Shown: positions 608 through 47,874 of the stretch, one piece after another | Layout of the letters: each line of letters starts with the position of its first letter | Position numbering within the stretch: the stretch's first letter is position 1 | NCBI GenBank assembly: GCA_944359625.1 | Contig: CALVSW010000004.1 | Span: forward strand, 30,000 to 93,999 | DNA: 64,000 bases | DNA from: an uncultured Bacilli bacterium | GTDB taxonomy: Bacteria > Bacillota_I > Bacilli_A > RF39 > UBA660 | Reading direction: 5' to 3' | The notes under the pieces: generated by a model | The model's database searches: none | Told to the model about the DNA's origin: nothing | What the model saw: only the letters and a program-made list of their open reading frames with translations | Made by a program: the position numbers and the translations under genes

Positions 608-1585
608 TTAATCTTTATTTAAGAAATTCATTACTAAATCAATCAAAACTTCTTTTTCTTTAGGATTTGATTGCGCTATTAATAAAGTAATAGCAACTAA
701 TGTATTATTATCAATTACTTGTCCTTTAGGACTATAAAGAAGATTATAAAACTTTAAAAAATATATAAACAATGTTGCAGCAATCCTCTTATTACCATCA
801 ATAAAAACATGATTTTTAGTAATTAAATATAAAAAATTAGCAGCTTTTTCTTCTATTGTTGGATATAAGTCTTTGCCATCAAAAGATTGGTATATTGTAG
901 CTACAATTGATTTTAAACCTTCATTTCTTTCTAAAGCAAATATATCACTATCTGAATTAAATTTTAATTTACCAACAATATTTATACAATCTTCATAAGT
1001 TATTTTATTATTATTTTTCGTTCCATTAGGTTTAACTAATCTTCTATGATCATAATCATCAAGTAAATTTAATGCTTTAGAATAATTATTTATTACCTTA
1101 ATTATTTCCTTTGCTTCATTACCAGTTAAATCATTATCAATTCTACCAGCTATATCAATTAATTTAATCGTTTTTTCAAGGTATTCTAATCTCTTATTAT
1201 TAACTGCATATCCTTTAATTAAATAATCTTTAATAACTTTATTAGCCCATTTTCTAAATATAACTCCATTTTTACTCTTAACTCTATAACCAACACTTAT
1301 TATCATATCTAAATTATAATAATCTATATAATGAGTCTGTGTTTTACCTTCAACAGCACCATGTTGTGTGGTATTCTCAAATTTTGCGACAACCACTTCA
1401 TCTTTTAATTCCTCTTTTAAAGAATTATTAATATGTTTTCTTATAGTTTTATAATCTCTGTCAAATAACTCAGCCATTTGCTCTGTATTTAACCAAACTG
1501 TTTCATCCTTCATATTGACTTCTAATTTAACATTTTGATTTTCAAATAATAATATTTCATTTTTCATAATTCCACTACCTCTCAT
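608..1585 (-). CDS. RhuM-family N-terminal domain fused to a Doc (Fic/Doc) toxin-like domain
   Basis: N-terminus (LLFENQNVKLEV...TVWLNTEQMAELF) resembles the RhuM/virulence-protein family. C-terminus carries NHVFIDGNKRIAA, which fits the Doc motif HxFx(D/N)GNKR. Confidence 0.6.
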   Translation of the reverse strand: MRGSGIMKNEILLFENQNVKLEVNMKDETVWLNTEQMAELFDRDYKTIRKHINNSLKEELKDEVVVAKFENTTQHGAVEGKTQTHYIDYYNLDMIISVGYRVKSKNGVIFRKWANKVIKDYLIKGYAVNNKRLEYLEKTIKLIDIAGRIDNDLTGNEAKEIIKVINNYSKALNLLDDYDHRRLVKPNGTKNNNKITYEDCINIVGKLKFNSDSDIFALERNEGLKSIVATIYQSFDGKDLYPTIEEKAANFLYLITKNHVFIDGNKRIAATLFIYFLKFYNLLYSPKGQVIDNNTLVAITLLIAQSNPKEKEVLIDLVMNFLNKD

Positions 1586-8061: not shown

Positions 8062-8082
8062 TTATATTATTGTATTTAAGGG

Positions 8083-8107
8083 CTCTTAGCCTTTTTTTAT
8101 TTAAAAA
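8083..8107 (+). terminator. Rho-independent terminator after the yolD-like gene
   Basis: aagGGCTCttagAGCCtttttttat: short GC stem (one G-U pair) followed by a T-run. Confidence 0.45.
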
Positions 8108-8148: not shown

Positions 8149-9714
8149 ATGCAGAAAATATTAATTGAAATTAAAGAAGATACTTTAGAATTTACTGGGT
8201 TAGTTAAATTAAAACCCGGTATTAGTAATTTATTAAATACAAATATTATATCTAATAACGAATTATTATTTTCTTTAAGTTATTTAAATGAAAATTATAA
8301 TATAGTTAATTTATTTATTAAAGAATTATGTCAAGATAAAAAAATTAAAAAAATACGTATTAGTGATATGTCTTTAGTAGCAGTTATTTGTCGTTTAATA
8401 AATAATGTTAATATTGAAGAAATTAATATTTTAGAAGAAGTAAATATTTCTTATGAAGCTTATGAAGCTTTAATTACGATACCATCTTTAAAAGAAGTTA
8501 GATGTTTTACAACTCCTACTTATATGTTAGATTTATTTGATAAAAAAAATATAGTAGTAGAATCTCGTCAAGAAGTATTATTTACCTCTAAATTTATGGA
8601 AGATAATAAGTTAACATCATATTCTAATATATATTATAAAGATAAAATTACTTTTAATACTATTACCGAAGAAGACTTAGAAGATTTTAAAATATTTTTA
8701 AAAATTAATAAATATTTAAAAACGATATATCTTAATACTTCTATTAAAGAATTTGTTAATAAAGTTGTTGATATATTAGTAAGTTATCGTTTAAAAAAAG
8801 TAAAAATAATAATATTAGATGATAATATTAATAAAGTTAATGCTGATAATTTAAGAGCTCTTAATAAAGAATATAGTAAGTACATTTTAATAAGAATATC
8901 TTATTCAAAAGAATATATACGTAAAAACTATTTAAAACAAATAATCTTAACTACTCTAACCTACTGTTTAATAATTATTATAGGTATCGTTACTATGACT
9001 ATTAGTTATATATTTATTAGTAATTATCAATCAGAACAAAATTTAATTGCTATTCAAGAAGAAATAAATAATATATTAAAAGATTATCCTGACCATGATG
9101 TTGTACCGCCAACATCTAATCCTGATGAAGAAATCCCAAGTATCCCCCAACTTACTCCTAATCAAGCTTATTTAAGTTTAAAAGAACTTAATAGTGATAC
9201 GGTAGGATGGTTAACTGTACCAGGTACTAATATTGATTATCCCGTTGTTAAAACTACTGATAATGAATATTATTTAACTCATAATTTTAAAAAACAAGAT
9301 GATTATAATGGTTGGGTATTTATGCATTATTTAAATAATGATACAATCTTAGATAAAAATACAATTCTTTTTGCTCATAATCGTTATTATAGTGGATTAA
9401 TGTTTGGAACTTTAAATAAAGTAAATAATAAAGATTGGTATAATAATACTAGTAATAATTTAATAACTTTTAATACGATATATAATAATTATAAATGGGA
9501 AGTCTTTTCTATTTATAGTGTTAAAGTAACTGCAGATTATTTAAAAACAATCTTTAATACTGATGAAGAATGGTTAAATTTTATTGATTTATTAAAAGGA
9601 CGCAGTGTATTTAAAAGTGATATTGAAATAGGACCAGATGATAAAATATTAACTTTATCAACATGTTTAGAAAATAATAAAAGATTAGTTGTTCATGCTG
9701 TACTAAGAAAGTAG
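8149..9714 (+). CDS. Class B sortase catalytic domain preceded by a ~260-aa cytoplasmic repeat domain and a TM helix
   Basis: C-terminal half carries VGWLTVPGTNIDYPVV...ILFAHNR...LTLSTC...RLVVHAVL, the SrtB-type His/Cys/Arg triad. A TM segment (LTYCLIIIIGIVTMTISYIFI) precedes it. N-terminal 260 aa is an L/I/N-rich repeat region with no family I recognise. Confidence 0.7.
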   Translation: MQKILIEIKEDTLEFTGLVKLKPGISNLLNTNIISNNELLFSLSYLNENYNIVNLFIKELCQDKKIKKIRISDMSLVAVICRLINNVNIEEINILEEVNISYEAYEALITIPSLKEVRCFTTPTYMLDLFDKKNIVVESRQEVLFTSKFMEDNKLTSYSNIYYKDKITFNTITEEDLEDFKIFLKINKYLKTIYLNTSIKEFVNKVVDILVSYRLKKVKIIILDDNINKVNADNLRALNKEYSKYILIRISYSKEYIRKNYLKQIILTTLTYCLIIIIGIVTMTISYIFISNYQSEQNLIAIQEEINNILKDYPDHDVVPPTSNPDEEIPSIPQLTPNQAYLSLKELNSDTVGWLTVPGTNIDYPVVKTTDNEYYLTHNFKKQDDYNGWVFMHYLNNDTILDKNTILFAHNRYYSGLMFGTLNKVNNKDWYNNTSNNLITFNTIYNNYKWEVFSIYSVKVTADYLKTIFNTDEEWLNFIDLLKGRSVFKSDIEIGPDDKILTLSTCLENNKRLVVHAVLRK

Positions 9715-9721
9715 GTGTATT

Positions 9722-12700
9722 ATGATAGATAATATAATTAAAGATTTAAATAGTATTATAGAATATACTATATATGAAAATATTAAATTAAATGATGAAA
9801 TGCAAGATAAGTTGAATAAAATAATTTTATATATGAATAATAGTAAAAATATAATTAAAGATTTAAATAGTATTATTGAAATTAGAAATAAAGAAAATAA
9901 AATATTTTTAGAAAGATATATAAGTATTATATTATCTAAAACTACCCTTTCTTTTTTAGATATTACTAAACTTCTTAAAACTAATATTTCCTTAAATATT
10001 AAATATATTTTATGGAATAAATTAAATAATAATAATAAAATAAATTATCTACTTAATAATAATATTGATAATGATGATATATCTTTAATAAATATATCTT
10101 TAAATAATAAAAATACTAAGTTATATCATAACATTATAAGTAATGAAGATATCTTAAAAAAATTAAAAGATCTTACTCCTAATATCAATATAATTAAGAT
10201 TGATGATTTTAATAACTTAAATATTTTAAAAGTTATGGATTCTAAAATAGTTAGTAAATATATTATGAAATATTATTATACTTATAATAACTTTAAAAAG
10301 TTAGTAAATAATAATCTAAATATTCTTAATTACGCTAGTAAATATAGTATTAAAATCGATAATATCGATAAAGAAGACTTAAATAAATTAGTATTAGAAT
10401 ACCCTCTTATATTAACTAAGTTAAATACTGATATAAGTATAAATAATTTAACTATTGATACATTAAATACTATTTTAAATAATAATCATGATTTAGATAT
10501 AAATAGTTGTATTAAAGAATTATTAACTATTATCGATAGTAATAATATCTATAAATATTTTAATTTAGATTTTATAAAACAACAAAAAGACTTTACTTTA
10601 AGTATTTATCCATTTGCTAAATTAGATAATAATTTAACTAAAGAAATTATTCATAATTATAATTTATTAAAGAAATTTACTTATAATACAATTGTTACTA
10701 TTATTAATAATTTATATATGGAAGAAGATAAAATAACGTTATTTAGAAATAATAATTTTATTGAAGAAATACCTAGTTATTATTTAGTTCAAATATTAAA
10801 TAATATGAATTTTAGAAATGTATTTAATTTATTACAAAATATTAACTTATTAAATAAGTTAGATAATTTAAATATTAAATTAAATATAGAAGATAATATT
10901 TTTATTAATAGTTATTTAGACTCTCCTACCTTAGTAAATATAAGTAATCCTAAAATGTTATATAATATGTTATTACTAAGTAATAATGTTATTAAATACT
11001 TAAATTTACCATATATAAATTCTAGATTAAATATATTAGATATAATAGATATTCTTGTTAACAAGAATATAAATATATTTAATAGTCCTTTACTAAATAA
11101 TTTTAAACCATTAGAAATTAAAAATTATATTAATAAGATGCTTAAAAAATATCATATTAATTATGATTTATTAATAAATGACTATGTCTTTAATAATATT
11201 TATAATTATAATAAAAATAAATTAACAAGTATGGATTTAGATAATCTTAAATACTTATTTGATAAAATATATACTAAAGGAATTAATACTTCTTCATGTT
11301 ATACAATAGACATTGATTCTTTTAAAAGTTTATTAAGTAGTTATATCTTATTAGGATTTGATAATACTAATAAACTATTTGAAAATGGAACTTATAATAT
11401 ATCATTTAAAAATATTAATAGTTTAAAAAATATATATGTAAAGAAATTTAAAAAAGATTTAAATTTATTAAGTGTTAAAAAAGTAAATAAATTATTTAGT
11501 AAATATTTATTAAAATTAGATAATAATGTAAAAGAAAACTTTTTAGAAAATTATTTACTAGATATCCCAGAAATAAAAAGTTATATTTTATTATTTAATA
11601 ATACTAAATATTCTAGTATTAAAGATACTATTAAATTATGTATGAATTATTTAGATTATAATAACTATAATAATGAAGTAGCTAATAATTTATTAACTAA
11701 TTTTATTAAGAATTTTAATAGTTATTATAAAGATAAATGGATATTAGAATTAAAAAATAGATTTGATAAAATAACGATAAAATCTTCTTTAATTAGTACT
11801 AATGTTTTATATCAAACAGAAAAAAATATTGATGAAGCTTATACTATTAAATTTAAATTAGATTTATTTAAAAAGTTTTTAAAATCTAATTATAAAGATA
11901 AGTATCAAGGATATTTTAATATTGATTTAAAAGATGTTATACCTAAATATTTAAAATATATAAAAACTAAAATTACTTTAGATGATATTATTAATAAAGT
12001 TTTAGTTGATACAGATATTAATAGTATTTTAAATAGTTTAAATATTAATACTCCAATATTTTATAATTTATATAAAGAAATAAATAAAGAAGAAGAATTA
12101 ATTACTAATTATAATAATATTCTTAAAAATAAATTAAAAAATATGCATAGTACTAGAGTGATTACTATTTTAAATTATATTTGTTATAATACTACTATTC
12201 CTTTTATAATAGATAATAAATTAAAAAAAGTTATTAAAAATATAAAAGATAAAATTAGTTCTTTTAATGGTAAAGTAGATGTTAATAAGTATAATAATAC
12301 TTTAGAATATACAAATATATTTACTTTTAATAATCTTAATGAATTAGAAGAATATGATTTAAAATATCAAAAGATAAATAATATTTTAGAAAAGACAAAT
12401 AAATTTATTGATAAATATATTAATACTATCGAAATAAAAGCTAAGTATAAAGATTATTATAAATACTCTTTAGATACATATTTAAGTATTATACCTGTTA
12501 ATAAAAATTATTATTCTTTAAAAAGAAGATATTTATATTTAGATGACTTTAAAAAAATATTTAATGGATATGACTTATCTATTAATCATTATTTAAGTAC
12601 TACTACTAAATCTTTCTTAGTAAATAACTTAGTATATGTAGCTTTAGGTTATGTAGATGATTTTACTAATAATTTTGGTTTAGCTTTAAATAAAATAGAT

Positions 12701-12748
12701 GATACTAAATTATATAATAATATCTATGAATTAGTAGTAAAAAACTAA
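9722..12748 (+). CDS. Large low-complexity N/K/I/L-rich hypothetical protein (1008 aa), no signal peptide
   Basis: Single continuous ORF starting 8 nt after the sortase-fusion gene. Contains internal sequence repeats (e.g. IIKDLNSIIE twice). No sorting signal at the C-terminus. Confidence 0.5.
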   Translation: MIDNIIKDLNSIIEYTIYENIKLNDEMQDKLNKIILYMNNSKNIIKDLNSIIEIRNKENKIFLERYISIILSKTTLSFLDITKLLKTNISLNIKYILWNKLNNNNKINYLLNNNIDNDDISLINISLNNKNTKLYHNIISNEDILKKLKDLTPNINIIKIDDFNNLNILKVMDSKIVSKYIMKYYYTYNNFKKLVNNNLNILNYASKYSIKIDNIDKEDLNKLVLEYPLILTKLNTDISINNLTIDTLNTILNNNHDLDINSCIKELLTIIDSNNIYKYFNLDFIKQQKDFTLSIYPFAKLDNNLTKEIIHNYNLLKKFTYNTIVTIINNLYMEEDKITLFRNNNFIEEIPSYYLVQILNNMNFRNVFNLLQNINLLNKLDNLNIKLNIEDNIFINSYLDSPTLVNISNPKMLYNMLLLSNNVIKYLNLPYINSRLNILDIIDILVNKNINIFNSPLLNNFKPLEIKNYINKMLKKYHINYDLLINDYVFNNIYNYNKNKLTSMDLDNLKYLFDKIYTKGINTSSCYTIDIDSFKSLLSSYILLGFDNTNKLFENGTYNISFKNINSLKNIYVKKFKKDLNLLSVKKVNKLFSKYLLKLDNNVKENFLENYLLDIPEIKSYILLFNNTKYSSIKDTIKLCMNYLDYNNYNNEVANNLLTNFIKNFNSYYKDKWILELKNRFDKITIKSSLISTNVLYQTEKNIDEAYTIKFKLDLFKKFLKSNYKDKYQGYFNIDLKDVIPKYLKYIKTKITLDDIINKVLVDTDINSILNSLNINTPIFYNLYKEINKEEELITNYNNILKNKLKNMHSTRVITILNYICYNTTIPFIIDNKLKKVIKNIKDKISSFNGKVDVNKYNNTLEYTNIFTFNNLNELEEYDLKYQKINNILEKTNKFIDKYINTIEIKAKYKDYYKYSLDTYLSIIPVNKNYYSLKRRYLYLDDFKKIFNGYDLSINHYLSTTTKSFLVNNLVYVALGYVDDFTNNFGLALNKIDDTKLYNNIYELVVKN

Positions 12749-12770: not shown

Positions 12771-12805
12771 AAAAGCCAGTTTAATTATCTAAACTAGCTT
12801 TTTTC
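12771..12805. terminator. Bidirectional rho-independent terminator between convergent genes
   Basis: AGCCAGTTTA-attatc-TAAACTAGCT (one mismatch) flanked by A-run upstream and T-run downstream. Confidence 0.5.
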
Positions 12806-14614: not shown

Positions 14615-14691
14615 GTCTCCATAGCTCAGCTGGATAGAGCATACGCCTTCTAAGCGTACGGTCGAGTGTTCGAATCACTCTGGGGACACCA
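14615..14691 (+). tRNA. tRNA-Arg (anticodon TCT)
   Basis: Cloverleaf folded by hand. Acceptor stem GTCTCCA/TGGGGAC, D-arm GCTC...GAGC, anticodon loop CT-TCT-AA, T-arm GAGTG-TTCGAAT-CACTC, encoded CCA. Confidence 0.85.
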
Positions 14692-17107: not shown

Positions 17108-17145
17108 ATATTTATTTTGTTATAATCTAAATAGAGGTGAACAAA

Positions 17146-18213
17146 ATGGAAACAGTAAAAATTAATGAATTACCTATTAATTATAATATGGATAAAGAGT
17201 TATTACGCTTACTTGCAGATGCTAATGAAATATATGGTGAATATAAATCAAAATTAAAAAATAGTAAAATAAATTCTAAACTTTTTTTAGATTCTCTTAT
17301 TTTAAAAGAAAGTTTTAAATCTACTCAAATTGAAGGAACTCAAATTTCTCAGGATGATATATATTATTTAAAATATATGCCTAAAACTGACGAAAACTTA
17401 GAAATTCAAAATTTAAAAATGGTAATTGATTATGCTAAAAATTATTTAAAAGAAAATAATAAAATCAATTTAGAATTTATAAATAAAATTCATAAAATTC
17501 TATTAAATAGTGTTCGTGGTAATGAAAAAGAACCTGGTAAAATACGTAGTATTCAAAATTGGATTGGACCAAGAGGATGTACAATTGAGGAAGCTAGTTA
17601 TATTCCTCCATCACCAGAAAAAGTTCCTATTTTATTAGATAATTTATTTAAATACATGAATGATTTATATGCGGATCCCCTATTTATAAATATGGCTATT
17701 TCCCATTGTCAATTTGAATCAATTCATGCTTATAGAGATGGTAATGGAAGATTAGGGAGAGCTTTAATCCCAATCCAATTGGCAGCTTTAACAAATGAAG
17801 AACCTATTTTATTCTTATCTGAAGTTATAGAACTTTATAAACCAACTTATTATCGTTTATTAAACGAAAGCCGTAACGGAAATATATTAGGATTTATTAA
17901 ATTCTTTTTACAATGTATTATTGAACAATGTAATAGTTATGTAAATAAAATAAATCGTATTGAACAAATATATGAAAAGAATAACGAAAAAATAAAAATA
18001 TTAAAAAGTAGTGCTGTATATCAAATAATGCCTATTATTACTAAATTAGTAATTTTTACAAAAAAGGAGATAGAAGAAGAATCTAAGTTATCAAGGAATA
18101 CCGTTTCTAGAATTATTGATAAATTAGTAGAACTTAATATTTTAGTTCCTGATACTAATCATATAAAACTTGGTTATCGTTATCAAGAAATATATAACGT
18201 ATTTATTAAATAA
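17146..18213 (+). CDS. Fic-family protein (AMPylator type) with N-terminal inhibitory motif, i.e. class II Fic
   Basis: HAYRDGNGRLGRAL fits the Fic motif HxFx(D/E)GNGRxxR. Upstream STQIEG fits the [ST]xxxE[GN] inhibitory helix motif. Likely start ATG 17146 (METVKINEL) with AGAGGTG RBS; the ORF-track GTG at 17137 is less likely. Confidence 0.8.
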   Translation: METVKINELPINYNMDKELLRLLADANEIYGEYKSKLKNSKINSKLFLDSLILKESFKSTQIEGTQISQDDIYYLKYMPKTDENLEIQNLKMVIDYAKNYLKENNKINLEFINKIHKILLNSVRGNEKEPGKIRSIQNWIGPRGCTIEEASYIPPSPEKVPILLDNLFKYMNDLYADPLFINMAISHCQFESIHAYRDGNGRLGRALIPIQLAALTNEEPILFLSEVIELYKPTYYRLLNESRNGNILGFIKFFLQCIIEQCNSYVNKINRIEQIYEKNNEKIKILKSSAVYQIMPIITKLVIFTKKEIEEESKLSRNTVSRIIDKLVELNILVPDTNHIKLGYRYQEIYNVFIK

Positions 18214-33523: not shown

Positions 33524-36082
33524 TTAATAGTCATCATCACCAAAGAAATCATCAAAGAATTCATCATCAGATATTATATTATTATTAACAACAACAGAAT
33601 CAACATCAACATTAATCTTTGGTTTATCTTCTTTTTTGCTTTCAATAACCAAATTATCATTCGTTACTGGAGTAGTCTTTATTTCTGTTTTTGGTACTTC
33701 ATCTAGAACTTCGACATCCTCTGCATCTTTTTCTGAAGATAAATCATTATAACTTGGAAGCTCATAGTTGGTATCAATAGATACTTTTATTGGTTCACTC
33801 TTATTTATTTCTGGTTTTATAAGCTTAGGATTTTCTTTTGGAGTAACCTCTTTTTCCTTTATAATTTCAGGAATCTCTTCAGTAATCTTAGGTTCTTCCT
33901 CTACCTTCTTTTGTTCTGGTTGCTCAATAGGAATTTCTTTTTCAATAGGTTTTATGTCTTCCTTAGGTTTAGAATCTAATTTAGATGTATCTAATTTCAT
34001 AGTCATACCTAAGTAATCATCGATATTTGGCTTTTTAACACTATCTTCTAAATTCTTTAAAGCAGCTTCCGTCATGGCTTTACTATCAGGAATTTTATTA
34101 TTTAAATTTTCTTTTTGACGAGCTTCTTCAGCATCTAATTCCGCAATTTTTTTATCAATATCACGCATCATCGCATCTAAATCTATTTTATTACTTCCGC
34201 CAAAAGGATTGGAAGTTTCTGGTTTAGTTGGTGTACTTTGAAATGGATTAGATGTTGCAAATGGATTATTTGATGCAAAAGGATTAAATGGCATATCAAA
34301 AGGATTACCACCAAAGCCTGGATTTGAACCGAAAGGACTATTTCCAAAATTAGCCATACTTTTTTCTTTCTTCTTTTCATTAACAAAACCTTTGATATCA
34401 AATAAAGCTACAGGTTTAGCAGCTCTTTGTGGAAAAGATGCATCGCTTGCTTGATAGCCCCAATCGACCTTATCATTGAAAGGTAACTTTGTTTTAAATG
34501 GACTCTTTCGAATACGCATTAATATCGCTTCACCAAACTTTAATTTTTGTAAATCTGTTACCGTTACTAAAGGTGTAGAAGCTGTTTTATCTTTTTCTTT
34601 AGATTTTACTTCACCACACATTTTACTAATTTCTTCTAAAGCAGCAAGTTCGGTAGATATTAAATAAATTGTATTACCACAGTTACCACGAATTACTTCC
34701 GCTACTTCTTTACCATAAACATCATTTAATTGGGCAAAGTTTTGAATAATAAATGTAAAGCGCATTTGTCTACTACGGGCAGCAGTTACCATTGAATCAA
34801 CATCTTTTAATGGTGGCATGTTAGCAAACTCATCTAAAATGAAGTTAGTTCTAATTGGTAATTTACCACCATTTTCTTGGGCAACATCAATTAGTGTTTC
34901 ATAACATTGTTTAATAAAAATAGTAGCTAATGCATGATAAGTAGTTTTTTCATCATGAACAACTATAAATACAGCAGTTTTTTCACGGCCAATATCTAAG
35001 ATACTAAAATCACTATGACCTAACATCTCTGATAAATTTTCACGAGATGCAAATAAACGTATTTTTTGTCTAAAAGTTGAAACTATACCACCTTTAGTAT
35101 CACTTGGAGCATTAATTGTTCCTGATGCAAAAGTGTAGGCACTTGAAGATTCACCTTTTAATAAGAAATATTCTTTAGCATAGTTAGAAGCTCCTAATCT
35201 TTCTTCACCAATCGTAGCCATTAAACTAATAGAATTAATATTTATTTCTTCTTCTTTAGCATCTTGAAATAGTCCTAAAGCTAAACCAGAAAAGTAATCA
35301 GCTGCAGATTTTTCCCAGAATGGTTCGCCCTTATTATTAGCATCATACAAAATATTTAAAGCAACATCATCTAATAATTCAGTAGCTTTATCCATATTTC
35401 CCATCTTGTAATATTGATATGGTAAGGTCAAAGGATTCCAAGCATTACCTTTTAATGGATCACGAAAATTTAAAATAATTACTTTGTAGCCTAATTCTTT
35501 TAATTTATTAGCAGCAGCAACATATAACTCACCCTTAGGGTCAGTTATAATCATAGATTCACCCTTTTTTGCTAACAAATTAACCATCGGTTTAACTACA
35601 CAACGTGATTTACCAGAACCAGAAGAACCAATTACTAAAGTATGATATTCACCATTATCAACCCACATTTCATTATTTTTACCTGTACATAAAGGAACAC
35701 CAGCAGCATTTAATGTTGCATCAGTAGTAATTACTTTAGCGACATCTCTATCAGTTTTAATATCTTTATCTTTAGCCCAACTAGAATAGCCTTTTTCTTC
35801 TTTTTCTTTAACTATAATACCTAATCCTTTTTTTTCTCTTTCAAAAACATAAGAAGATACAGAAGAGAAAATCATAATTAGTGCTAGAAAAAATAAAAGT
35901 AACGTTATTGGTAAATAAACACCTGAAAAAGCAGGAATAGGATTTAAACCCCATAATCTTCCTTCAGCACCAAAATTAATAAAATTTAAAACACTGATTG
36001 CACATAAATATAATAAAAATAAGCAAAATATCACAAATATAATTAAATCTTTAGAAGTTATTCTAAATTTCATTAACAACAC
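33524..36082 (-). CDS. Type IV secretion coupling protein (VirD4/TraG/TcpA/PcfC-like ATPase)
   Basis: N-terminal TM helices, Walker A VIGSSGSGKSR, Walker B FILDEFANMP. Long low-complexity acidic/proline C-terminal tail. Confidence 0.8.
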   Translation of the reverse strand: MLLMKFRITSKDLIIFVIFCLFLLYLCAISVLNFINFGAEGRLWGLNPIPAFSGVYLPITLLLFFLALIMIFSSVSSYVFEREKKGLGIIVKEKEEKGYSSWAKDKDIKTDRDVAKVITTDATLNAAGVPLCTGKNNEMWVDNGEYHTLVIGSSGSGKSRCVVKPMVNLLAKKGESMIITDPKGELYVAAANKLKELGYKVIILNFRDPLKGNAWNPLTLPYQYYKMGNMDKATELLDDVALNILYDANNKGEPFWEKSAADYFSGLALGLFQDAKEEEININSISLMATIGEERLGASNYAKEYFLLKGESSSAYTFASGTINAPSDTKGGIVSTFRQKIRLFASRENLSEMLGHSDFSILDIGREKTAVFIVVHDEKTTYHALATIFIKQCYETLIDVAQENGGKLPIRTNFILDEFANMPPLKDVDSMVTAARSRQMRFTFIIQNFAQLNDVYGKEVAEVIRGNCGNTIYLISTELAALEEISKMCGEVKSKEKDKTASTPLVTVTDLQKLKFGEAILMRIRKSPFKTKLPFNDKVDWGYQASDASFPQRAAKPVALFDIKGFVNEKKKEKSMANFGNSPFGSNPGFGGNPFDMPFNPFASNNPFATSNPFQSTPTKPETSNPFGGSNKIDLDAMMRDIDKKIAELDAEEARQKENLNNKIPDSKAMTEAALKNLEDSVKKPNIDDYLGMTMKLDTSKLDSKPKEDIKPIEKEIPIEQPEQKKVEEEPKITEEIPEIIKEKEVTPKENPKLIKPEINKSEPIKVSIDTNYELPSYNDLSSEKDAEDVEVLDEVPKTEIKTTPVTNDNLVIESKKEDKPKINVDVDSVVVNNNIISDDEFFDDFFGDDDY

Positions 36083-36124
36083 CCAATTTCTATATTACAT
36101 TATACAATAACAAATAAATAATAT

Positions 36125-36859
36125 CTATGTATTTTTATTCTTTTTTTTCAATATAAGAATCATTAAAATTATATAAACTAAAAATCCTACAATTATCAAA
36201 ATGATATTTATAATACTATTATTTTCTTCAGTATTTTGACTATCTGGAATATCTTCATTATCAGGATTTTCCTCTTCTTCTTTATTTTTAGCAAGGGAAA
36301 TAAAAATATTTTTATTTAAATAATTATCACGACTAAATAACCATGTATACTCATTATTATTTACTAAATCAGCATTACTATTCGTAACAGCTAAATCAGT
36401 TTTAATCGTAATAATAACACTAGTTAAATCAGGAGCTAAATCAAAGTATTTAAGACCTTTACTAGTCGAAATAATTATATTATCATTATTATCTAAAAAA
36501 CTTTTAGTATTATTAGCAAATAACCATGTTGGTGTATTATTTAATTTTTCTAATTGATTATTATTATTTAAACTATACATATAACCAGTATCATTTTGTA
36601 ATAATAAGTTTTTAGCATAACAATCTTCTAGTTTTTCACATATAAGATTATTTAACTCAGTTAGTTCAGTTATTTCACGAGGATAATATTCGTTATAAGT
36701 ATTAGCAATATCTGTTATATTTCTAGTAGTAGTAACAAAATCATTAACGATTACTTCCTCATCAAAACTATCTTCAGTAATCGTAATGTTATAGTTAACA
36801 GTACAACCACTCATTATTAAACTAAATAATAATATTAAAATTAATTTAATTTTGTTCAT
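36125..36859 (-). CDS. T4SS-associated lipoprotein with C-terminal TM anchor
   Basis: Probable start MNKIKLILILLFSLIMSGC (lipobox). Hydrophobic C-terminus IINIILIIVGFLVYIILMILIL. Lies between the hydrolase and coupling-protein genes. Confidence 0.5.
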   Translation of the reverse strand: MNKIKLILILLFSLIMSGCTVNYNITITEDSFDEEVIVNDFVTTTRNITDIANTYNEYYPREITELTELNNLICEKLEDCYAKNLLLQNDTGYMYSLNNNNQLEKLNNTPTWLFANNTKSFLDNNDNIIISTSKGLKYFDLAPDLTSVIITIKTDLAVTNSNADLVNNNEYTWLFSRDNYLNKNIFISLAKNKEEEENPDNEDIPDSQNTEENNSIINIILIIVGFLVYIILMILILKKKNKNT

Positions 36860-36864
36860 TTTTA

Positions 36865-39237
36865 TCACCCACACAATCCTGGTAAATATGTTAATGGATC
36901 TACTCGACTTCCATTTACAAACACTTCAAAATGCAAATGGTTTCCAGTAGCAGCACCAGTTTGACCTACATAACCGATTAAAGTGCCCGCAGTAACTGTA
37001 GAACCAATTTGTAAATCTGAAGGCTTTATCATATGAGCATAGAGAGTTTCAATCCCATTATTTCCAGCTATTCGAACATAATACCCATAACCATCAGAAT
37101 CATTACCATTTATCGTAACTGTACCATCATGTGCAGCATATATTGGTGTATTAGCTGGTCTAGCTATGTCGATGCCATTATGATTTTTTTGAACACCACT
37201 TATTGGATGAACACGATTGCCATACATCGAAGAACAATTACCCGTAGTTTCTAATGGATACATTAATCCATACGAATTAACTTCCCCATTTAAATTATAA
37301 TTCTTTAAACTTGAAGATAATACTGCATTATCATAATAGAAATTTAATATTTCATTATAAAGTTTTCCTTGTACGGTTGACATATAATAAGCACCATACT
37401 GACTCATTCCACGGCCATGACCACCATCACCATCAGTTCCACAAGGATGTTCTAAATACGATGTTCCACTCCATTTTGGAACATTTTCATAAGCCCAAGC
37501 AATTGGTATAGCTTGATGTTTTTGGGCTAAATAATAGTTAGTGCTATCTTTAGATTCATAGCAAAAAGCATCATATTCAGTTGAAACTAAATTACCGGCA
37601 CCATCAGTCATTATTTGACCAGTAGTTTGCGATACAGCATCAATAATTTGTTGATTAGTTGTTGGACGGAATGCTTGCGTATTAGTACTACTTGTAATAT
37701 AGCATACACCATCAGTATTTTGCGATCTTGTAAATAAATACGTACGTGCTGCTACAGAGAAAGCTTTAAAAGTTTCAGTATCTTGAAATCCTCCTACTTC
37801 ATGGCTAATAACACCAGCTACATAATCATCTAAAGTATAAGTTCCCATGTAATCACCAGATGTAACAGTAACATTATCACAGCCATTAACATCTACATAT
37901 GATAGTTCTGGAGAAGGCTGATACATATCACAAATTGGAAATATTTCAAATGGCTCTAATTCTAATTTTTCTACTTTAAATAATTTTTTAATAGTTTCAT
38001 CATAGTTAGTTCCCTGATTCAAAGCACTTAAGTCTAATTCTATTTTAGGAGCATAACCGATAATTATCTCACTTTTACCTAAAGATACAGCATTAGTAAT
38101 ATTATCTTGACTATCATCTGTTGATTCAGTATTATTTTCAGGAATATTTAATAAAGTATATTTATTGGTATCTTTTAATGTACAAGTACTTTCACCACTA
38201 TTAATAGACGAATTAATTAATAAATCAGAATTTACTACCACTCCTAAAGCATGATAATCTTCAGCATTACTAGTATATGAGCCAAAATAATAATTAACAG
38301 CACCTGCTAAATATTCATCAATTGTATAAGTACCTGCAGAGGGACCATCTGGTATAATAACGGTATTACAAGTAGGATTATTAACACAGTTAACATCAGC
38401 ATCTTCATTATAATCATAAATGTTATTTGAAACTATTCCAGATATTATAAAAATTATAATTAATAAAGCAAGTATTATTACTATAAATAACATAATAAAT
38501 GGGATTAAGGGAGCAATAACAGAAAGTGTTAACTTAAATGAAGTAGATCTTCCTAATAATATATTTTTTGTAAATTTTTTATTTTCATTTGTAGGTTCAT
38601 CATTATTATCAGATTTTTCTTTTTGAGATTCATTATTACTTTTAGAATTTTTATCTTTTAAAGGTTCTGAACTATCATCTTGTTTATCATCAAAACTTTC
38701 TTCTTCTGGTAAAGAATCTATAGTTTGATTAAACTTATTTTGTATATTTTTGCCATAATTCTTTATTTTATTTCTAGTTTTTCCTACCAAAGAAGCAGCT
38801 GTTCCTAACATTCCTAATTTGCTTTTAGGATTTAAAATGTTAGATAATTTTTCTTTATTTTCTTTTGTTTCTTCACTTACTTTTGGTGAACTATTTTTGC
38901 TTTCTTTTTCGTCTTCATTTACTTTTGGTATAGTGTCTTTATTTTCTTTTTCTAAAGATTTTTTTTGTGATTTATTAAGTGCTTTCCCACCATTTTCAAG
39001 CATTTTATCAACAGCTGGATTATCTAAAGTTTTTTTTACAGCCTGTCCTGCTGCAGCTCCAGCAGGTCCTCCAATTGCACCACCAATTACTGGAGCAGCA
39101 TTTTTTATTACTTTACGCCCAAGCTTTGATTGCAAACCTTTACTAGCTAAATTGCCAACCATATTTTTATTATAGGAAATCGGTTGCTTTGGATTTTGCT
39201 GAGGTTCTGTAGAAGAGTTCTTTTTTTCTTCGTCCAT
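36865..39237 (-). CDS. Bifunctional cell-wall hydrolase: SpoIID/LytB-like lytic transglycosylase domain plus C-terminal M23 (LytM) peptidase; functional VirB1 analogue
   Basis: GGHGRGMSQYGAYYMS is the SpoIID-family signature. C-terminus HNGIDIA...GNHLHFEV is the M23 HxxxD/HxH motif. Long charged cytoplasmic N-tail and one TM, as in PrgK/TcpG-type T4SS hydrolases. Confidence 0.75.
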   Translation of the reverse strand: MDEEKKNSSTEPQQNPKQPISYNKNMVGNLASKGLQSKLGRKVIKNAAPVIGGAIGGPAGAAAGQAVKKTLDNPAVDKMLENGGKALNKSQKKSLEKENKDTIPKVNEDEKESKNSSPKVSEETKENKEKLSNILNPKSKLGMLGTAASLVGKTRNKIKNYGKNIQNKFNQTIDSLPEEESFDDKQDDSSEPLKDKNSKSNNESQKEKSDNNDEPTNENKKFTKNILLGRSTSFKLTLSVIAPLIPFIMLFIVIILALLIIIFIISGIVSNNIYDYNEDADVNCVNNPTCNTVIIPDGPSAGTYTIDEYLAGAVNYYFGSYTSNAEDYHALGVVVNSDLLINSSINSGESTCTLKDTNKYTLLNIPENNTESTDDSQDNITNAVSLGKSEIIIGYAPKIELDLSALNQGTNYDETIKKLFKVEKLELEPFEIFPICDMYQPSPELSYVDVNGCDNVTVTSGDYMGTYTLDDYVAGVISHEVGGFQDTETFKAFSVAARTYLFTRSQNTDGVCYITSSTNTQAFRPTTNQQIIDAVSQTTGQIMTDGAGNLVSTEYDAFCYESKDSTNYYLAQKHQAIPIAWAYENVPKWSGTSYLEHPCGTDGDGGHGRGMSQYGAYYMSTVQGKLYNEILNFYYDNAVLSSSLKNYNLNGEVNSYGLMYPLETTGNCSSMYGNRVHPISGVQKNHNGIDIARPANTPIYAAHDGTVTINGNDSDGYGYYVRIAGNNGIETLYAHMIKPSDLQIGSTVTAGTLIGYVGQTGAATGNHLHFEVFVNGSRVDPLTYLPGLCG

Positions 39238-39283
39238 AAAAACACCACCATCACTATGTAAATTTTATCATAAAATAGTGGTT

Positions 39284-39312
39284 AAAAAAAGTCTAAACAT
39301 TAATTTAGACTT
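39284..39312 (-). terminator. Internal hairpin/terminator between the VirB4 and hydrolase genes
   Basis: Minus strand reads AAGTCTAAA-ttaatg-TTTAGACTT followed by TTTTTT. Confidence 0.45.
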
Positions 39313-39315
39313 ATT

Positions 39316-41103
39316 CTAAAATCCACCACCAGTTCCAAAAGAATCTAACTCTTCTTGAGTACATATTACATAAATTTGCATTCTTCTAGAACCACAAATA
39401 AATAATCCTTGGCCTTGATTATAATACTTAATATTATTCATTTCAGCTTCGGTTAAATCAATCAAACTTGACAAATCATCTACAGCTTGCTTTTTTAATC
39501 CCATTACCAAATAATAAGAGGCATTATCAAATATTGCTTTACCATGCATAATTAAATTTGGAGAAGCAAAGTCAGTAGGTTGTTGAGTAATAATAATTGT
39601 CCCACTATTATATTTACGAGATCTTCTTTGAATTTGAGCTAAAAATTCAGCACCTAATTCATTATGAGAGGATAATAAAACATGAGCTTCATCAACACTC
39701 AACACTGAAGTTACTGTTTTATCCAAACATAAACCCCAAGCATATTTTAAGATATTGAAAAATATTGCATTACGAATATTTTCATCGCTATTCATTAATT
39801 CACGAATATTAAAAACCACAAAATCACTTTGAATATTTAAAGTTGTATGACCATTAAAGTAATAACGAAGTTCCCTAGTAAATGGTCTAATTTTAAGTTC
39901 TAATCTTTCTAAAATATCTTTTTCCCTAGTTTTTTCAGGAATAGAAAGTAATCTACCTCTAATTGTAGCATATACATCATCAAATGTTGGATAATCTTGA
40001 CTAGTAAGGCGTGAAAAATCAGTATCATAATCTATTTTAAATCTTTTATAAGTATCTTGAGCAATTTCACTAAACATTGTTAAAACATCTTCTTCAATAT
40101 CTGGTGAATAATATTTCAAGAAAGCTTTTAAAGATTGTAAAGCTCTTGTTAAGACCGTATAACCTAATCCTTGAGCTAAATCTTCTTCATCAGCATCAGC
40201 AACGACTTCAAGGGGATTTATCATCCCAAATTCGCCACCTTTTCCTAAATCTAGAAAATCACCATCTAAAAATTTAGCCATTTCTTCGAGTTCACCTTCA
40301 GGATCAATAGCAATTACCTTATAACCATTACGAATATGAGATCTTAAAAGTAATTTGCTTGCTGTTGATTTACCACTACCAGATGTACCTAAAATTATCA
40401 TATTAGCATTGTTTCGATTATGTTCTTTTTTAATTTGATAAAGAAATTGATTAAATAAAACAACTCCACCAGAATAATCAACACCTAATAAAGTAGAATT
40501 TCCAATATCTTTAACACTATCAAATATAAATGGATACATAGCCGCAATTGTAGGAGAAGGAATTGGCGTACCAATTCTTTCTTCTAAATCTTGTTTAGGA
40601 AATATTGGTAAAATAGATTTTAAAACTTTTTCTTGTTCAAACATTAAAGGTATACCACGCATTCCCATAGCGTCTAAGAAACTCAAAAGATTAACTTTTT
40701 TACTTTCCAAATCTTCCTTAGAATCCGCAACTACCATCAAATGTAATTGAAAATCAAATATTCTTGATTGTGTTGCTGCTAACATCTGGACAAATTGTTC
40801 TAAAGATTCATAATCTTGTCTAATTCTTTCTTGAATAGTACGATCATTTTCATTTTGATATCTTTGTTTCAAATCAGCAATTTCTTTATTAATCATCTTA
40901 CTCATTGTACTAAATTCAATTGGAATATGCTTAGCAACTACTTTAACACCATTAATATTACTTAAATCTGATAAATAACCCGGAGATATATATTTAGGAT
41001 AACTTATAATCGTATAAATTGTACAATATTTACCACTCATAATAAAATCAGTAATATTATACTTCATTCCTTTAGGAGCTAATTCACTTTTTAAATTCAA
41101 CAT
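39316..41103 (-). CDS. VirB4-family T4SS ATPase (TcpF/PrgJ/Orf16-like)
   Basis: Walker A ILGTSGSGKST, Walker B SVDEAH, about 600 aa. This is the Gram-positive VirB4 architecture. Confidence 0.85.
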   Translation of the reverse strand: MLNLKSELAPKGMKYNITDFIMSGKYCTIYTIISYPKYISPGYLSDLSNINGVKVVAKHIPIEFSTMSKMINKEIADLKQRYQNENDRTIQERIRQDYESLEQFVQMLAATQSRIFDFQLHLMVVADSKEDLESKKVNLLSFLDAMGMRGIPLMFEQEKVLKSILPIFPKQDLEERIGTPIPSPTIAAMYPFIFDSVKDIGNSTLLGVDYSGGVVLFNQFLYQIKKEHNRNNANMIILGTSGSGKSTASKLLLRSHIRNGYKVIAIDPEGELEEMAKFLDGDFLDLGKGGEFGMINPLEVVADADEEDLAQGLGYTVLTRALQSLKAFLKYYSPDIEEDVLTMFSEIAQDTYKRFKIDYDTDFSRLTSQDYPTFDDVYATIRGRLLSIPEKTREKDILERLELKIRPFTRELRYYFNGHTTLNIQSDFVVFNIRELMNSDENIRNAIFFNILKYAWGLCLDKTVTSVLSVDEAHVLLSSHNELGAEFLAQIQRRSRKYNSGTIIITQQPTDFASPNLIMHGKAIFDNASYYLVMGLKKQAVDDLSSLIDLTEAEMNNIKYYNQGQGLFICGSRRMQIYVICTQEELDSFGTGGGF

Positions 41104-41675
41104 TAAATCATCACCGTCCCAAAATTAGTACTAACGCCACCATTTAAGAAATTATCTAATATCATTCTTAAATCACCATTAGAGACTTGCATTGAATTTA
41201 ATCCACAATTTGCTAAGCCCGTAATTAATATTCTCAATCTTTTTTGAATTATATCGATTCTTTTTTCTTTAAAAAGGATAAAGTATTCGGTATCAACAAC
41301 ATTGTACTCAGCACCCATAAAAGCATTTGCTTTATTAATATCTTGCATTATTAATTTGCGAGTAATATTACTATTTGATTTTTGATATAAAACTTGTAAT
41401 TGCGCTAAATAAGGAGCAATATCTACTGGGCGATCCGCTATTATTAGCCAAAATTCAAAATCAATAGTATTATAAAAATTTCGTAATTGAGTAATAATAT
41501 TATTTTGAGAACCAGTGTCCATTATGAATATATTGCGTGGCTGAATTTTTACACCACAAACAAAATTACCATCCTCTAACTGAATCATCCCATTAACAAT
41601 ATTTTTAACAGGTAACCAGTCCTCACAATACTTATAATTATTTTCATTCTTCTCTATCTTTGCCGTAGACATCTT
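41103..41675 (-). CDS. Hypothetical T4SS operon protein (~190 aa)
   Basis: ORF between the VirB3-like and VirB4 genes. Likely start at internal Met (MSTAKIEKNEN); the longer ORF-track version overlaps the upstream gene by 76 nt. Confidence 0.4.
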   Translation of the reverse strand, partial: KMSTAKIEKNENNYKYCEDWLPVKNIVNGMIQLEDGNFVCGVKIQPRNIFIMDTGSQNNIITQLRNFYNTIDFEFWLIIADRPVDIAPYLAQLQVLYQKSNSNITRKLIMQDINKANAFMGAEYNVVDTEYFILFKEKRIDIIQKRLRILITGLANCGLNSMQVSNGDLRMILDNFLNGGVSTNFGTVMI

Positions 41676-41973
41676 TAACACACCAGCCTTTCCAAATATA
41701 TTCTCTAGGATTTTTTGCACTATAATAATTTAATACGTTACCAATAAATGTCATAACATTATGATAATTAGGTACTGGCATTACTAAAAATAATGAAATT
41801 AATAAAGGTAAACATAATAAAATTATTTGATTAATATTATTAGCATTAATCATTATTAATAATAAAAGGGTAACACCTGCACCAGTACCAAATACAGCCA
41901 AATCAATTGGAGTAAAAAAGCCAAATATTAACTTAGACTTTTTACTATTTGCCGGGATTAAAAAGTTTCGCAT
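41644..41973 (-). CDS. VirB3/TcpE/PrgI-like small two-TM T4SS protein
   Basis: 109 aa, two hydrophobic helices, immediately upstream of VirB4, which is the canonical position. Confidence 0.55.
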   Translation of the reverse strand: MRNFLIPANSKKSKLIFGFFTPIDLAVFGTGAGVTLLLLIMINANNINQIILLCLPLLISLFLVMPVPNYHNVMTFIGNVLNYYSAKNPREYIWKGWCVKDVYGKDREE

Positions 41974-41988
41974 AAACTCCTCCTTATT

Positions 41989-44181: not shown

Positions 44182-44192
44182 GACTATCCCTC

Positions 44193-45107
44193 CTAACTAA
44201 TACCACATACTCCATAAATTCCAACTAGTTTAAAAGTCCAATCTAGCAAACTTGGTATAATAAATAACATTATTGCATAAATTAACCTTTTTAAAGTTTT
44301 AACTCCTAATTTAGTTAATTCATCATTTTTACCATTTGCTAATACTTTTATTAAATCAACAATTGTCATCACAACAACTAAAATTGGCCCTGCAAACTTA
44401 ATTATTTCCAATAATTTAGCTAAATAATAGCCTAGATATTCTGGGTCATCATAGTCACCTAAAACGTAGTCACATGTTAATGAGCCATTATTATTAGACG
44501 AATTATTACTTTCATCATCGCCAGCCTCGTTCCACCAGTAATCCTTATCTTCTGTTGTTACATGGACAATTTTTGTACCATTACCAGCGCCAACTGTAAC
44601 ATTTGCAGAACAATTTGGTGCTATCGCATGAAGCGTACAAGAATAAGTACCAGCAATTGAAGAAGCCGTAGAAGAATTTGCTGAAACACAACTTGGATTA
44701 TCAGAAACACATGTTGCTGAACCACTTTGATAAGAAGTACTATCTTCTAATTTCATAGTAATATCAATTTCTTCTGAAGGAGTAACAGGTTCTGCTTGAC
44801 TAGGATCACCAACTGTAACGTTAATAACCCTTGAACTTGTACCACCACCAATTGTTACCGTAGAATTACAATTATCACCAATAGCAACAAAAGTGCAATG
44901 ATAAAGTCCAGATTGATTCGTATAACTTTCACTAGCAGAAACACACATAGGGTTAGAAGATTTACAACCAGATAAATTAGAATTAATAATGTGGTTCTGT
45001 CCTTTAGACATTGTCATTTCTTCTGCATACGTCAAATAGTGACAAGAAAAAATGGCTACAAAAATAAATAAAAAAGAAAAGATAACATGTTTAATATTCT
45101 TTTTCAT
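44193..45107 (-). CDS. Secreted Cys-rich two-repeat ectodomain fused to a VirB2/TrbC-like C-terminal membrane hairpin
   Basis: Signal peptide (MKKNIKHVIFSFLFIFVAIFS). Two ~60-aa Cys-rich repeats (...NPMCVSASESYTNQSGLYHCT... / ...NPSCVSANSSTASSIAGTYSCT...). C-terminal FAGPILVVVMTIVDLIKVLANGK...IYAIMLFIIPSLL hairpin resembles TrbC/VirB2 pilins. Confidence 0.5.
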   Translation of the reverse strand: MKKNIKHVIFSFLFIFVAIFSCHYLTYAEEMTMSKGQNHIINSNLSGCKSSNPMCVSASESYTNQSGLYHCTFVAIGDNCNSTVTIGGGTSSRVINVTVGDPSQAEPVTPSEEIDITMKLEDSTSYQSGSATCVSDNPSCVSANSSTASSIAGTYSCTLHAIAPNCSANVTVGAGNGTKIVHVTTEDKDYWWNEAGDDESNNSSNNNGSLTCDYVLGDYDDPEYLGYYLAKLLEIIKFAGPILVVVMTIVDLIKVLANGKNDELTKLGVKTLKRLIYAIMLFIIPSLLDWTFKLVGIYGVCGIS

Positions 45108-45168
45108 TAAGCCACCTCTAACAAAAAAATTATAACATAAAAAAAGTAATATTTGCAAAAAATATTAC

Positions 45169-45495
45169 CTATAAATACAAATATGACTTACAGTCAATCC
45201 ATCCTCTAGCATTAGTATCACCAGTTTCAGCAACGGTCTCCATAATTAAGCCAACGATAGATGGAATAAAGAATATCAATACAGCAGCAAGCGCACGGAA
45301 AGCAAAACTTTTAATATTTTTAGTAATTTCTTCTGGTTTTCCAGCTACAACACTTTTACCAACATCTAACATACCAAATAAAATTAATAAAATAGGAATA
45401 ATAATTTTAACAGCCGTTATAAGCATTCCTAACAAATTTAAAAATGGCTTTAACTCACCACATACAGTAGCTGGTGATAAACTCATTAATAACAT
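45169..45495 (-). CDS. VirB2/TrbC-like pilin-family small membrane protein
   Basis: Helix, loop and helix arrangement ITAVKIIIPILLILFGMLDVGKSVVAGKPEE ... AAVLIFFIPSIVGLI, as in Firmicute TrbC/VirB2-family proteins. Confidence 0.45.
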   Translation of the reverse strand: MLLMSLSPATVCGELKPFLNLLGMLITAVKIIIPILLILFGMLDVGKSVVAGKPEEITKNIKSFAFRALAAVLIFFIPSIVGLIMETVAETGDTNARGWIDCKSYLYL

Positions 45496-45558
45496 ATAGC
45501 AAACATCTCCTTCATCTAGCTTTATTTTAATATAAAATAATTAATATTGTCAAGAAAA

Positions 45559-46614: not shown

Positions 46615-46626
46615 ATATCCGTCCTC

Positions 46627-47591: not shown

Positions 47592-47597
47592 ACTATA

Positions 47598-47831: not shown

Positions 47832-47874
47832 CTTTTATCTTCTTTCTATATAATTATATCTTTTTTCTATATAA

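Follow-up and report, generated by a model that had tools for sequence, protein, structure and literature searches.

We describe here a gene of an uncultured Bacilli bacterium, located in a 64,000-nt stretch of contig CALVSW010000004.1 (GenBank assembly GCA_944359625.1; the whole stretch is hereafter called the window), that is predicted to encode a class B sortase (SrtB) fused to a folded cytoplasmic domain. It is followed on the same strand by a gene encoding a 1008-aa protein. The best overall explanation of our results, which we hold with moderate confidence, is that the 521-aa sortase represents a SrtB family with a cytoplasmic domain and a dedicated substrate, the substrate gene having been displaced in the lineage of the window. 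Sortases are extracellular enzymes with a minimal membrane anchor. According to our analyses, an order-level group of abundant uncultured gut Bacilli would use a sortase with a large and strongly conserved cytoplasmic domain. Literature searches turned up no account of a sortase carrying a folded domain on the cytoplasmic side, or of the α-solenoid predicted for the 1008-aa protein; the family is previously undescribed.

The fusion sortase and its family

The sortase gene and the regions of its product are as follows:

8149-9714 (+): sortase gene, an open reading frame (ORF) of 521 aa
8149-8940 (+): predicted cytoplasmic N-domain, residues 1-264, a β/α-repeat domain resembling leucine-rich repeats (LRR-like), delimited by its AlphaFold2 (AF2) model and conservation
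8941-9024 (+): single transmembrane (TM) helix, residues 265-292, Kyte-Doolittle hydropathy 2.47, the sole hydrophobic segment of the sortase
9025-9165 (+): predicted extracellular Pro/Asp/Glu-rich linker, residues ~293-339, poorly conserved in the alignment profile
9166-9714 (+, stop codon included): class B sortase catalytic domain, residues ~340-521, with His410, Cys506 and Arg512

To assign the catalytic domain, the 521-aa protein was compared with family models and solved structures. It matched the Pfam Sortase model over residues 355-519 (E 1e-12) and the NCBIfam model TIGR03064 "class B sortase" over residues 265-514, with 167.2 bits against a curated cutoff of 153.75. Among solved structures, the closest was SrtB of Bacillus anthracis (1rz2, E 3e-37), followed by the SrtB enzymes of Clostridioides difficile, Listeria monocytogenes, Staphylococcus aureus and Clostridium perfringens. 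The motifs ILFAH410NR, LTLSTC506 and KR512LVVHAVL can be read in the sequence, and their H410, C506 and R512 align with those of B. anthracis SrtB. These three residues are conserved in 100% of the 80 full-length relatives that we aligned, and the whole catalytic domain is as conserved in the window as in other members of the family. By model cutoff, triad and membrane anchor, this domain is a class B sortase (TIGR03064 / MEROPS C60B), as a first reading of the DNA (the original prediction) had proposed from the intact His, Cys and Arg.

The net charge is +4 on the N-terminal side of the TM helix and -3 on its C-terminal side. Following the positive-inside rule, this distribution suggests an N-in/C-out topology, with residues 1-264 in the cytoplasm and the catalytic domain outside. 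The 521-aa protein would be a type-II membrane protein, with its folded N-domain in the cytoplasm and, beyond the single TM helix, an intact SrtB domain carried outside on a Pro-rich stalk. The cytoplasmic region and TM helix expected from the original prediction proved to be a real architecture, conserved across the family.

Residues 1-264 matched no Pfam or NCBIfam model, LRR models included (Pfam threshold E <= 0.1). An AF2 model built with 19 homologs had a mean predicted local distance difference test score (pLDDT) of 86.9 and contained about nine β-α units with a spacing of 20-30 residues. This model points to a separate folded domain rather than a propeptide or lid, in line with the original prediction. 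In Foldseek comparisons with the PDB, the best match of the N-domain was ribonuclease inhibitor (E 1.6e-3, probability 0.97), yet with a template modelling (TM) score of only 0.29. Other weak matches, with similar scores (TM score ~0.29), were the LRRs of NLRP3 and SKP2 and designed TIM barrels. A search of PDB sequences with the N-domain profile returned only the LRR of the TSH receptor, which was not significant (E 0.32). We describe the N-domain as an apparent β/α-repeat, LRR-like domain, with no claim that it belongs to the LRR family.

The N-domain is strongly constrained. Among the 80 aligned relatives, ~30 of its positions are conserved at >=95%, many of them polar (N30, T31, N32, S42, Y45, N49, D131, E142, S147, N153, D176, D179, N187, Y189, K191, Y252, Y256, N260 and Q264), and the motif I186-N187-x-Y189-L190-K191 is invariant (INKYLK in the window). 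A near-invariant N-T-N-I-I-S stretch is encoded at 8236-8253 (sortase residues 30-35). It is overlapped by residues 21-33, the only low-confidence part of the AF2 model of this domain. This loop, conserved yet apparently flexible, is a candidate binding site.

We then assessed the distribution of the family. A word-indexed protein search with the N-domain returned 21 metagenomic proteins, mostly partial, two of which (P0003 and P0010) continue past the N-domain into a TM helix and a sortase domain. A HMMER search with the N-domain profile on 1.84e9 representative proteins gave 257 matches at E <= 1e-3 (50%-identity clusters). Among the 150 best of these 257, all full-length proteins were sortases of 507-565 aa and the rest were fragments; none showed the N-domain in another architecture or in a protein longer than 565 aa. 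Among the matches listed, the N-domain would have no other setting than the N-terminal part of this sortase. When one genome per species was scanned with an alignment of 7 sequences as the query, at least 227 genomes proved to encode a relative of the fusion sortase, and loci were drawn from the 80 best of them. Complete ORFs at the loci of these 80 species were all 512-572 aa long and all contained both the N-domain and the sortase domain. A neighbour-joining tree of the 80 sortases separated clade A (28 loci, window included) from clade B (52 loci).

The 80 best matching genomes are gut or rumen metagenome-assembled genomes, labelled uncultured Bacilli, Tenericutes or Mycoplasma, "Mycoplasma sp. 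CAG:956/776" or "Coprobacillus sp. CAG:605". We take these organisms to be the order RF39 of GTDB. According to a published survey, RF39 retains srtA/B sortases (PMC10868615). The 521-aa protein belongs to a conserved class B sortase family restricted to this lineage of uncultured, very low-GC gut Bacilli.

The substrate in relatives and its probable counterpart in the lineage of the window

The gene environment of the sortase was examined at 84 non-redundant loci, where every ORF located up to 7 kb on either side of the sortase gene was assigned to a cluster. One protein family (cluster 1) was found at 70 of the 84 loci, always on the opposite strand, its distance to the sortase start having a median of 127 nt. 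Of the 14 loci lacking this family, nine end within 200 nt upstream of the sortase, so that the family is present in 70 of the 75 loci with upstream sequence. The true exceptions are the window and three loci of the same lineage (L010, L011 and L012), and L053. At L053, a 577-aa gene judged by eye to be transposase-like (907-2640, -) occupies the usual position of cluster 1; this is a second, independent disruption of the pairing, and apart from it the window lineage is the only one among the loci lacking an adjacent substrate.

Cluster 1 proteins are 173-286 aa long and carry a typical signal peptide, and an alignment of 19 members from clade A shows five invariant cysteines. Near their C-terminus lies a N-P-x-T-G motif, in which N is found in 52, P in 47, T in 69 and G in all of 71 substrates. 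Next come x-x-Φ-[PN]-Y and a hydrophobic helix, and the protein closes with a basic tail ending in [RK]-[KR]-x-x-K-Φ-Y-[KRT]-[IV]-COOH, with K at -5 in 69/71 and Y at -3 in 65/71. The number of residues after TG is exactly 31 in 69 of the 71. The tails of known sorting signals are simply basic, and a fixed signal length together with a conserved extreme C-terminus is unusual. Against NCBIfam models, the substrate of L014 was the sole one to score above the cutoff of LPXTG_anchor (16.2 bits, cutoff 15.9), and that of L018 reached 19.1 bits with Rumino_NPXTG (NF033846), under the cutoff of 23.5. Rumino_NPXTG is an already catalogued class of C-terminal N-P-x-T-G signals in Firmicutes; the present signal shares this motif and differs from that class by its fixed 31-residue length and its conserved K-Φ-Y-[KRT]-[IV] C-terminus.

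These features point to a dedicated substrate of the family, a small secreted Cys-containing NPxTG protein normally encoded divergently ~130 nt upstream of the sortase. Such a protein is what would be expected as the substrate of a SrtB-type enzyme. The sortase would cleave it after the Thr and link it to peptidoglycan, by analogy with other SrtB enzymes.

In the window, the situation is different. A regular-expression scan of all ORFs >=60 aa detected no C-terminal sorting signal in the 64 kb, as the original prediction had noted for the neighbourhood, together with a lack of SrtB-associated iron or heme-uptake genes. Hidden Markov models (HMMs) of 70 substrates (full-length and C-terminal) found nothing below E 0.003 in six-frame translations of the window, L001, L002 and L010-L013; the best match, at E 0.003, was rejected as a different membrane protein, associated with a type IV secretion system (T4SS). 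At the ancestral position of the substrate, the window, L010, L011 and L012 carry dinB-yolD and a DNA-alkylation repair gene. The nearest outgroup of the window in clade A is L014 (Coprobacillus sp. CAG:605; sortase 55% identical), and its locus holds all three genes, for the substrate, the sortase and a 1005-aa protein.

The original prediction had read this absence as a sortase repurposed in a two-gene system. In that explanation, the enzyme has lost its wall-anchoring role and forms, with the 1008-aa protein, a self-contained system lacking a classical substrate, in which a sensor or scaffold in the cytoplasm would control the transpeptidase outside. The absence of a sorting-signal protein within 64 kb, the tight and conserved linkage of the pair and the occupation of the ancestral substrate position by other genes in this lineage would all agree with it. 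Yet clade-A relatives with the same pair (L014, L009, L007, L021, L045 and others) keep an adjacent NPxTG substrate, a matching unlinked substrate family of the same GC content occurs in the same assemblies (see below), and the triad and catalytic domain are as conserved in the window as elsewhere. We consider this alternative improbable. A canonical SrtB substrate, which would speak against repurposing, is essentially present in the relatives, but none lies within the window itself.

We also searched for a substrate encoded away from the sortase. A profile of the 19 clade-A substrates retrieved P0041, P0043, P0044 and P0045, with the cluster member P0207. These proteins of 200-201 aa share 42-44% identity with the substrate of L014. 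Besides a signal peptide and the conserved cysteines, they possess a C-terminal region reading "...CPTPDTGAFANYA...SRKNKFYRV", the sorting signal being PTPDTG...KFYRV. Their genes are located on contigs of ONAT22-1 and BRZ, the two assembly projects that also yielded the lineage of the window, and no sortase was found near them on these contigs. The long contigs L091 and L092 have a GC content of 22.8%, against 21-22.4% in the window lineage and >=24.8% in the other relatives examined, and the GC content at third codon positions (GC3) of the P0041-type genes is 7-10%. L092 (BRZ_GD NODE_7354, coverage 7.5, also at NCBI) shares its assembly with L012 (BRZ_GD NODE_2108, coverage 8.03, bin14). Every other clade-A lineage sampled has retained a substrate of its own beside the sortase. 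Most simply, the P0041-type proteins would be the relocated substrates of the lineage of the window. What looked like a missing substrate would then reflect a rearrangement confined to one lineage and no new function.

Genes neighbouring those of the P0041 type are a MOP-family (Polysacc_synt/MatE) gene, relA, dtd, a sigma-70 gene and polA. A shared flippase neighbour was rejected as a functional link, the similarity among MOP-family genes being only at paralog level. Synteny between L014 and L093 was likewise rejected; the equal-sized 444-aa genes beside the substrate are not homologous.

The 1008-aa protein and the operon

The gene following the sortase and the signals around the pair are listed below:

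9722-12748 (+): predicted cytoplasmic all-α (ARM/HEAT-like) protein of 1008 aa, specific to clade A
10679-11401 (+): conserved core of this protein, residues ~320-560, holding most of the invariant residues
8078-8094 (+): terminator-like hairpin and T-run between yolD and the sortase gene, a 7-bp stem with 3 GC pairs, then TTTTTATTT
12771-12802 (-): terminator-like hairpin of 14 pairs between the 1008-aa gene and the convergent sufU, end of the operon

The spacer between the sortase gene and the 1008-aa gene is 7 nt, and the AGGTG sequence before the second start overlaps the stop codon of the sortase, suggesting that the two genes are probably translationally coupled. Two terminator-like sites were found in the region, where 0.2 would be expected. 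Because these hairpins (8078-8094 and 12771-12802) bound the pair, the operon is predicted to consist of the sortase and the 1008-aa gene, DinB-YolD forming a separate unit. We ruled out DinB-YolD as a part of the system. The link drawn in the original prediction appears incidental, with a terminator in between and an adjacency that is not conserved beyond the closest relatives.

The 1008-aa protein is rich in N (17%), L (14%), I (14%) and K (12%). Its gene has a GC content of 13.9%, below the 21-27% of its neighbours (sortase 20.8%, dinB 26.5%, sufS 25.4%), which explains this N/K/I/L bias. The protein had been described as low-complexity at first, which does not hold: AF2 modelled it as all helices (pLDDT 86.9, predicted TM score 0.51), and 12 clusters of homologs of 940-1392 aa, with identities as low as 27%, align along its entire length. 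No match was found in Pfam, NCBIfam, PADLOC or PDB sequences. In Foldseek, β-catenin, CAND1, SF3B1 and importins were retrieved at E 1.5e-3 to 1e-2 with very low TM scores, and the model resembles an ARM/HEAT-like solenoid.

Invariant residues of the core include E334, R342, N360, N369, Q372, D391 and S401, among others. Two mini-versions, at L016 (11666-12511, 281 aa) and L026 (11652-13112, 486 aa), keep only HMM positions ~324-575. Residues ~320-560 probably represent the functional core of the protein. The long homologs (~1390 aa) add a C-terminal extension, in which a known domain was not found.

As foreseen in the original prediction, the protein lacks a signal peptide and a sorting motif. 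Its N-terminus is not hydrophobic, TM segments are absent, and the sequence lacks even a single [TS]G dipeptide and thus any LPXTG- or NPxTG-like motif. These absences rule it out as a substrate of the sortase.

A search with the family HMM found a homolog of the 1008-aa protein directly downstream of the sortase, on the same strand, in all 28 clade-A loci. The pair stands in several unrelated contexts (near cotJB/cotJC in L007 and L008, near an ABC transporter in L009 and near suf genes in the window), so that its conservation, one of the points to be verified, is confirmed. None of the 52 clade-B loci carries a homolog (up to ~9 kb downstream covered). Mean identity of the N-domain is 0.50 within clade A, 0.49 within clade B and 0.39 between clades. 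The N-domain being equally conserved with and without the 1008-aa protein, its conserved function would be independent of that protein, which is ruled out as a universal partner of the N-domain. A search for clade-A-specific N-domain residues that could mark an interface with the α-solenoid gave essentially none (one position only). The two-gene system proposed originally thus stands in part: the pair is a conserved module in clade A, but the 1008-aa protein is not a general partner of the N-domain. On these sequence comparisons, it would be a clade-specific, tightly linked cytoplasmic accessory of the sortase.

Of note, at L032, L034, L036 and ~16 other clade-B loci (~17-19 in all), a conserved trio is located 0-3 kb downstream of the sortase. 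Its members are a protein of 211-216 aa, TrmB-type methyltransferase-like by eye, a 110-aa protein rich in N/Q whose C-terminal part contains a coiled-coil-like "RLSKIERQLNRLD" segment, and a membrane protein of 547 aa, MurJ/SpoVB-type flippase-like by eye. The latter is only distantly related to the MOP-family gene beside the P0041-type substrate.

Known sortase systems, possible functions and surroundings

Comparison with characterized systems could help to place this family. Canonical SrtB enzymes of S. aureus and B. anthracis have a homologous catalytic domain with the same His-Cys-Arg triad and an N-terminal anchor, and a dedicated N-P-x-T-x substrate beside the enzyme, likewise found in most members of the present family. 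They have only a few residues before the TM helix, where the present sortase has a folded domain of 264 aa. Their motif NPQTN ends in N whereas that of the present family ends in G, and their substrates are unrelated to its Cys-containing substrate. NEAT or Isd Pfam domains were absent among the neighbours in the window and in four other contexts, and with the G-ending motif this rules out an Isd-type heme-uptake locus.

The SrtB of C. difficile, the single sortase of that species (PMC4155245, PMC4371152), is a class B relative; its structures 5gyj and 4ux7 are among the best solved relatives of the window sortase (E ~1e-33). Its signals, (S/P)PxTG and NVQTG, are of the x-P-x-T-G type as here. 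It differs in having no cytoplasmic domain, no α-solenoid partner and several dispersed substrates, against one adjacent substrate in the present family. In oral streptococci, the SrtB-AbpA locus pairs a class B sortase with a single adjacent substrate bearing an unusual extended signal (PMC4974636). This dedicated enzyme-substrate pairing resembles that of the present family, although the motif is different and a cytoplasmic domain is lacking. NF040525 (LPKTxAVK-specific SrtB) was the second-best NCBIfam match of the window sortase, with 93 bits, far under its cutoff of 200. By analogy, the system would work like the dedicated SrtB-substrate pairs Isd/IsdC, AbpA-SrtB and C. difficile SrtB with its PxTG signals.

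Some class B sortases assemble pili (PMC3019223), and the enzyme could be a pilus polymerase like Spy0129 of Streptococcus pyogenes, the small Cys-containing protein being the polymerized pilin. Spy0129 (3psq) is a detectable relative (E 7e-17), and a locus of one enzyme and one substrate would be compatible with such a role. We nevertheless regard it as quite improbable, since no minor pilin or second sortase accompanies the single substrate gene within ±7-10 kb, the substrate matches no pilin or Cna-B Pfam domain, and the nearest solved structures belong to the anchoring SrtBs of Bacillus, Clostridioides and Listeria. A Spy0129-type pilus operon was accordingly not retained.

The only described sortase that we found with a cytoplasmic extension important in vivo is SrtE1 of Streptomyces coelicolor, a possible precedent for the present family. 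Deletions in its cytoplasmic N-terminal extension impair aerial development, and its authors speculate that the extension contacts other proteins (PMC5148588). SrtE1 is a class E enzyme of a different phylum with a LAxTG signal, and its extension consists of conserved acidic and basic segments with no domain assigned, in contrast to the class B enzyme and 264-aa repeat domain described here.

Returning to the SrtB family with a displaced substrate, we propose that the sortase anchors the small Cys-containing protein to peptidoglycan. In the window and L010-L012, the substrate gene would have left its ancestral position, now held by DinB-YolD behind its own terminator, and would persist elsewhere in the genome as the P0041 type. 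The N-domain could be a protein-binding module acting from the cytoplasmic side, and in clade A the co-transcribed α-solenoid of 1008 aa could scaffold or regulate the sortase complex. As the partner of the N-domain we tentatively prefer the invariant cytoplasmic C-terminal tail of the substrate, an option that is possible if still rather unlikely, and whose binding would account for the constant number of 31 residues after TG and for the conserved C-terminus. It is doubtful, though conceivable, that both faces of the membrane take part in reading the signal, the SrtB domain taking N-P-x-T-G and the N-domain taking the K-Φ-Y-[KRT]-[IV] tail. If so, which protein is anchored and when could be controlled from the cytoplasm, in clade A through the α-solenoid, and no earlier sortase would have a cytoplasmic domain that recognizes the substrate or exerts regulation. 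Coupling of the N-domain and the tail could mean that surface display is gated from inside the cell, which would bear on sortase biology and sortase-based protein engineering, and on the one surface protein conserved in a gut lineage that is poorly known and has reduced genomes.

The N-domain could instead dock the sortase onto a housekeeping machine (the Sec translocon, the divisome, or lipid II synthesis or flipping) and not onto the substrate. Anchoring would then be placed at sites of wall growth, and the α-solenoid would be a clade-A adaptor. A universal partner is suggested by the equal conservation of the N-domain with or without the α-solenoid, and LRR-like and α-solenoid folds are generic scaffolds for protein-protein interactions. 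Such docking leaves the strict conservation of the cytoplasmic tail and of the signal length unexplained, and no housekeeping neighbour of the sortase is conserved across clades, nearby MOP-family genes being only paralog-level similar to each other. We hold it to be possible but likewise doubtful.

Several points weigh against the explanation by a displaced substrate and a tail-binding N-domain. Binding of the tail is suggested solely by the co-occurrence of two unusual conserved features. The fold match of the N-domain is weak, with both LRR proteins and TIM barrels retrieved and no LRR Pfam model matched. The substrate could be a pilin instead of a wall-anchored monomer. The link of the P0041-type proteins to the genome of the window is circumstantial; their contigs do not come from exactly the samples of the window sortase, and tetranucleotide signatures did not discriminate, the low-GC relatives all giving 0.90-0.98. 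Lastly, ORFs were called from the first start codon and some start sites may be off.

The surroundings of the operon were also inspected. The GC content of the window is about 22-24%. A conjugative T4SS-like cluster at 33524-48126 (-) has a GC content of 28-33% vs ~22%, and is probably an integrated conjugative element. It comprises genes for a VirD4/TraG coupling protein (33524-36082, PF02534, E 1e-52), a SpoIID+M23 wall hydrolase (36865-39237), a VirB4/TraG-P-loop ATPase (39316-41103), a 730-aa polytopic membrane protein (41989-44181) and two small Cys-rich proteins (47598-47831 and 47875-48126), each beginning with MKEATGELN followed by a TM helix. Closer to the operon, genes with Fic domains flank the region at 608-1585 (-) and 17137-18213 (+), with RhuM/Fic and Fic_N+Fic matches (Pfam, identical contig L001). 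A tRNA gene at 14615-14688 (+) is the only Rfam match in the window (RF00005, 66.7 bits).

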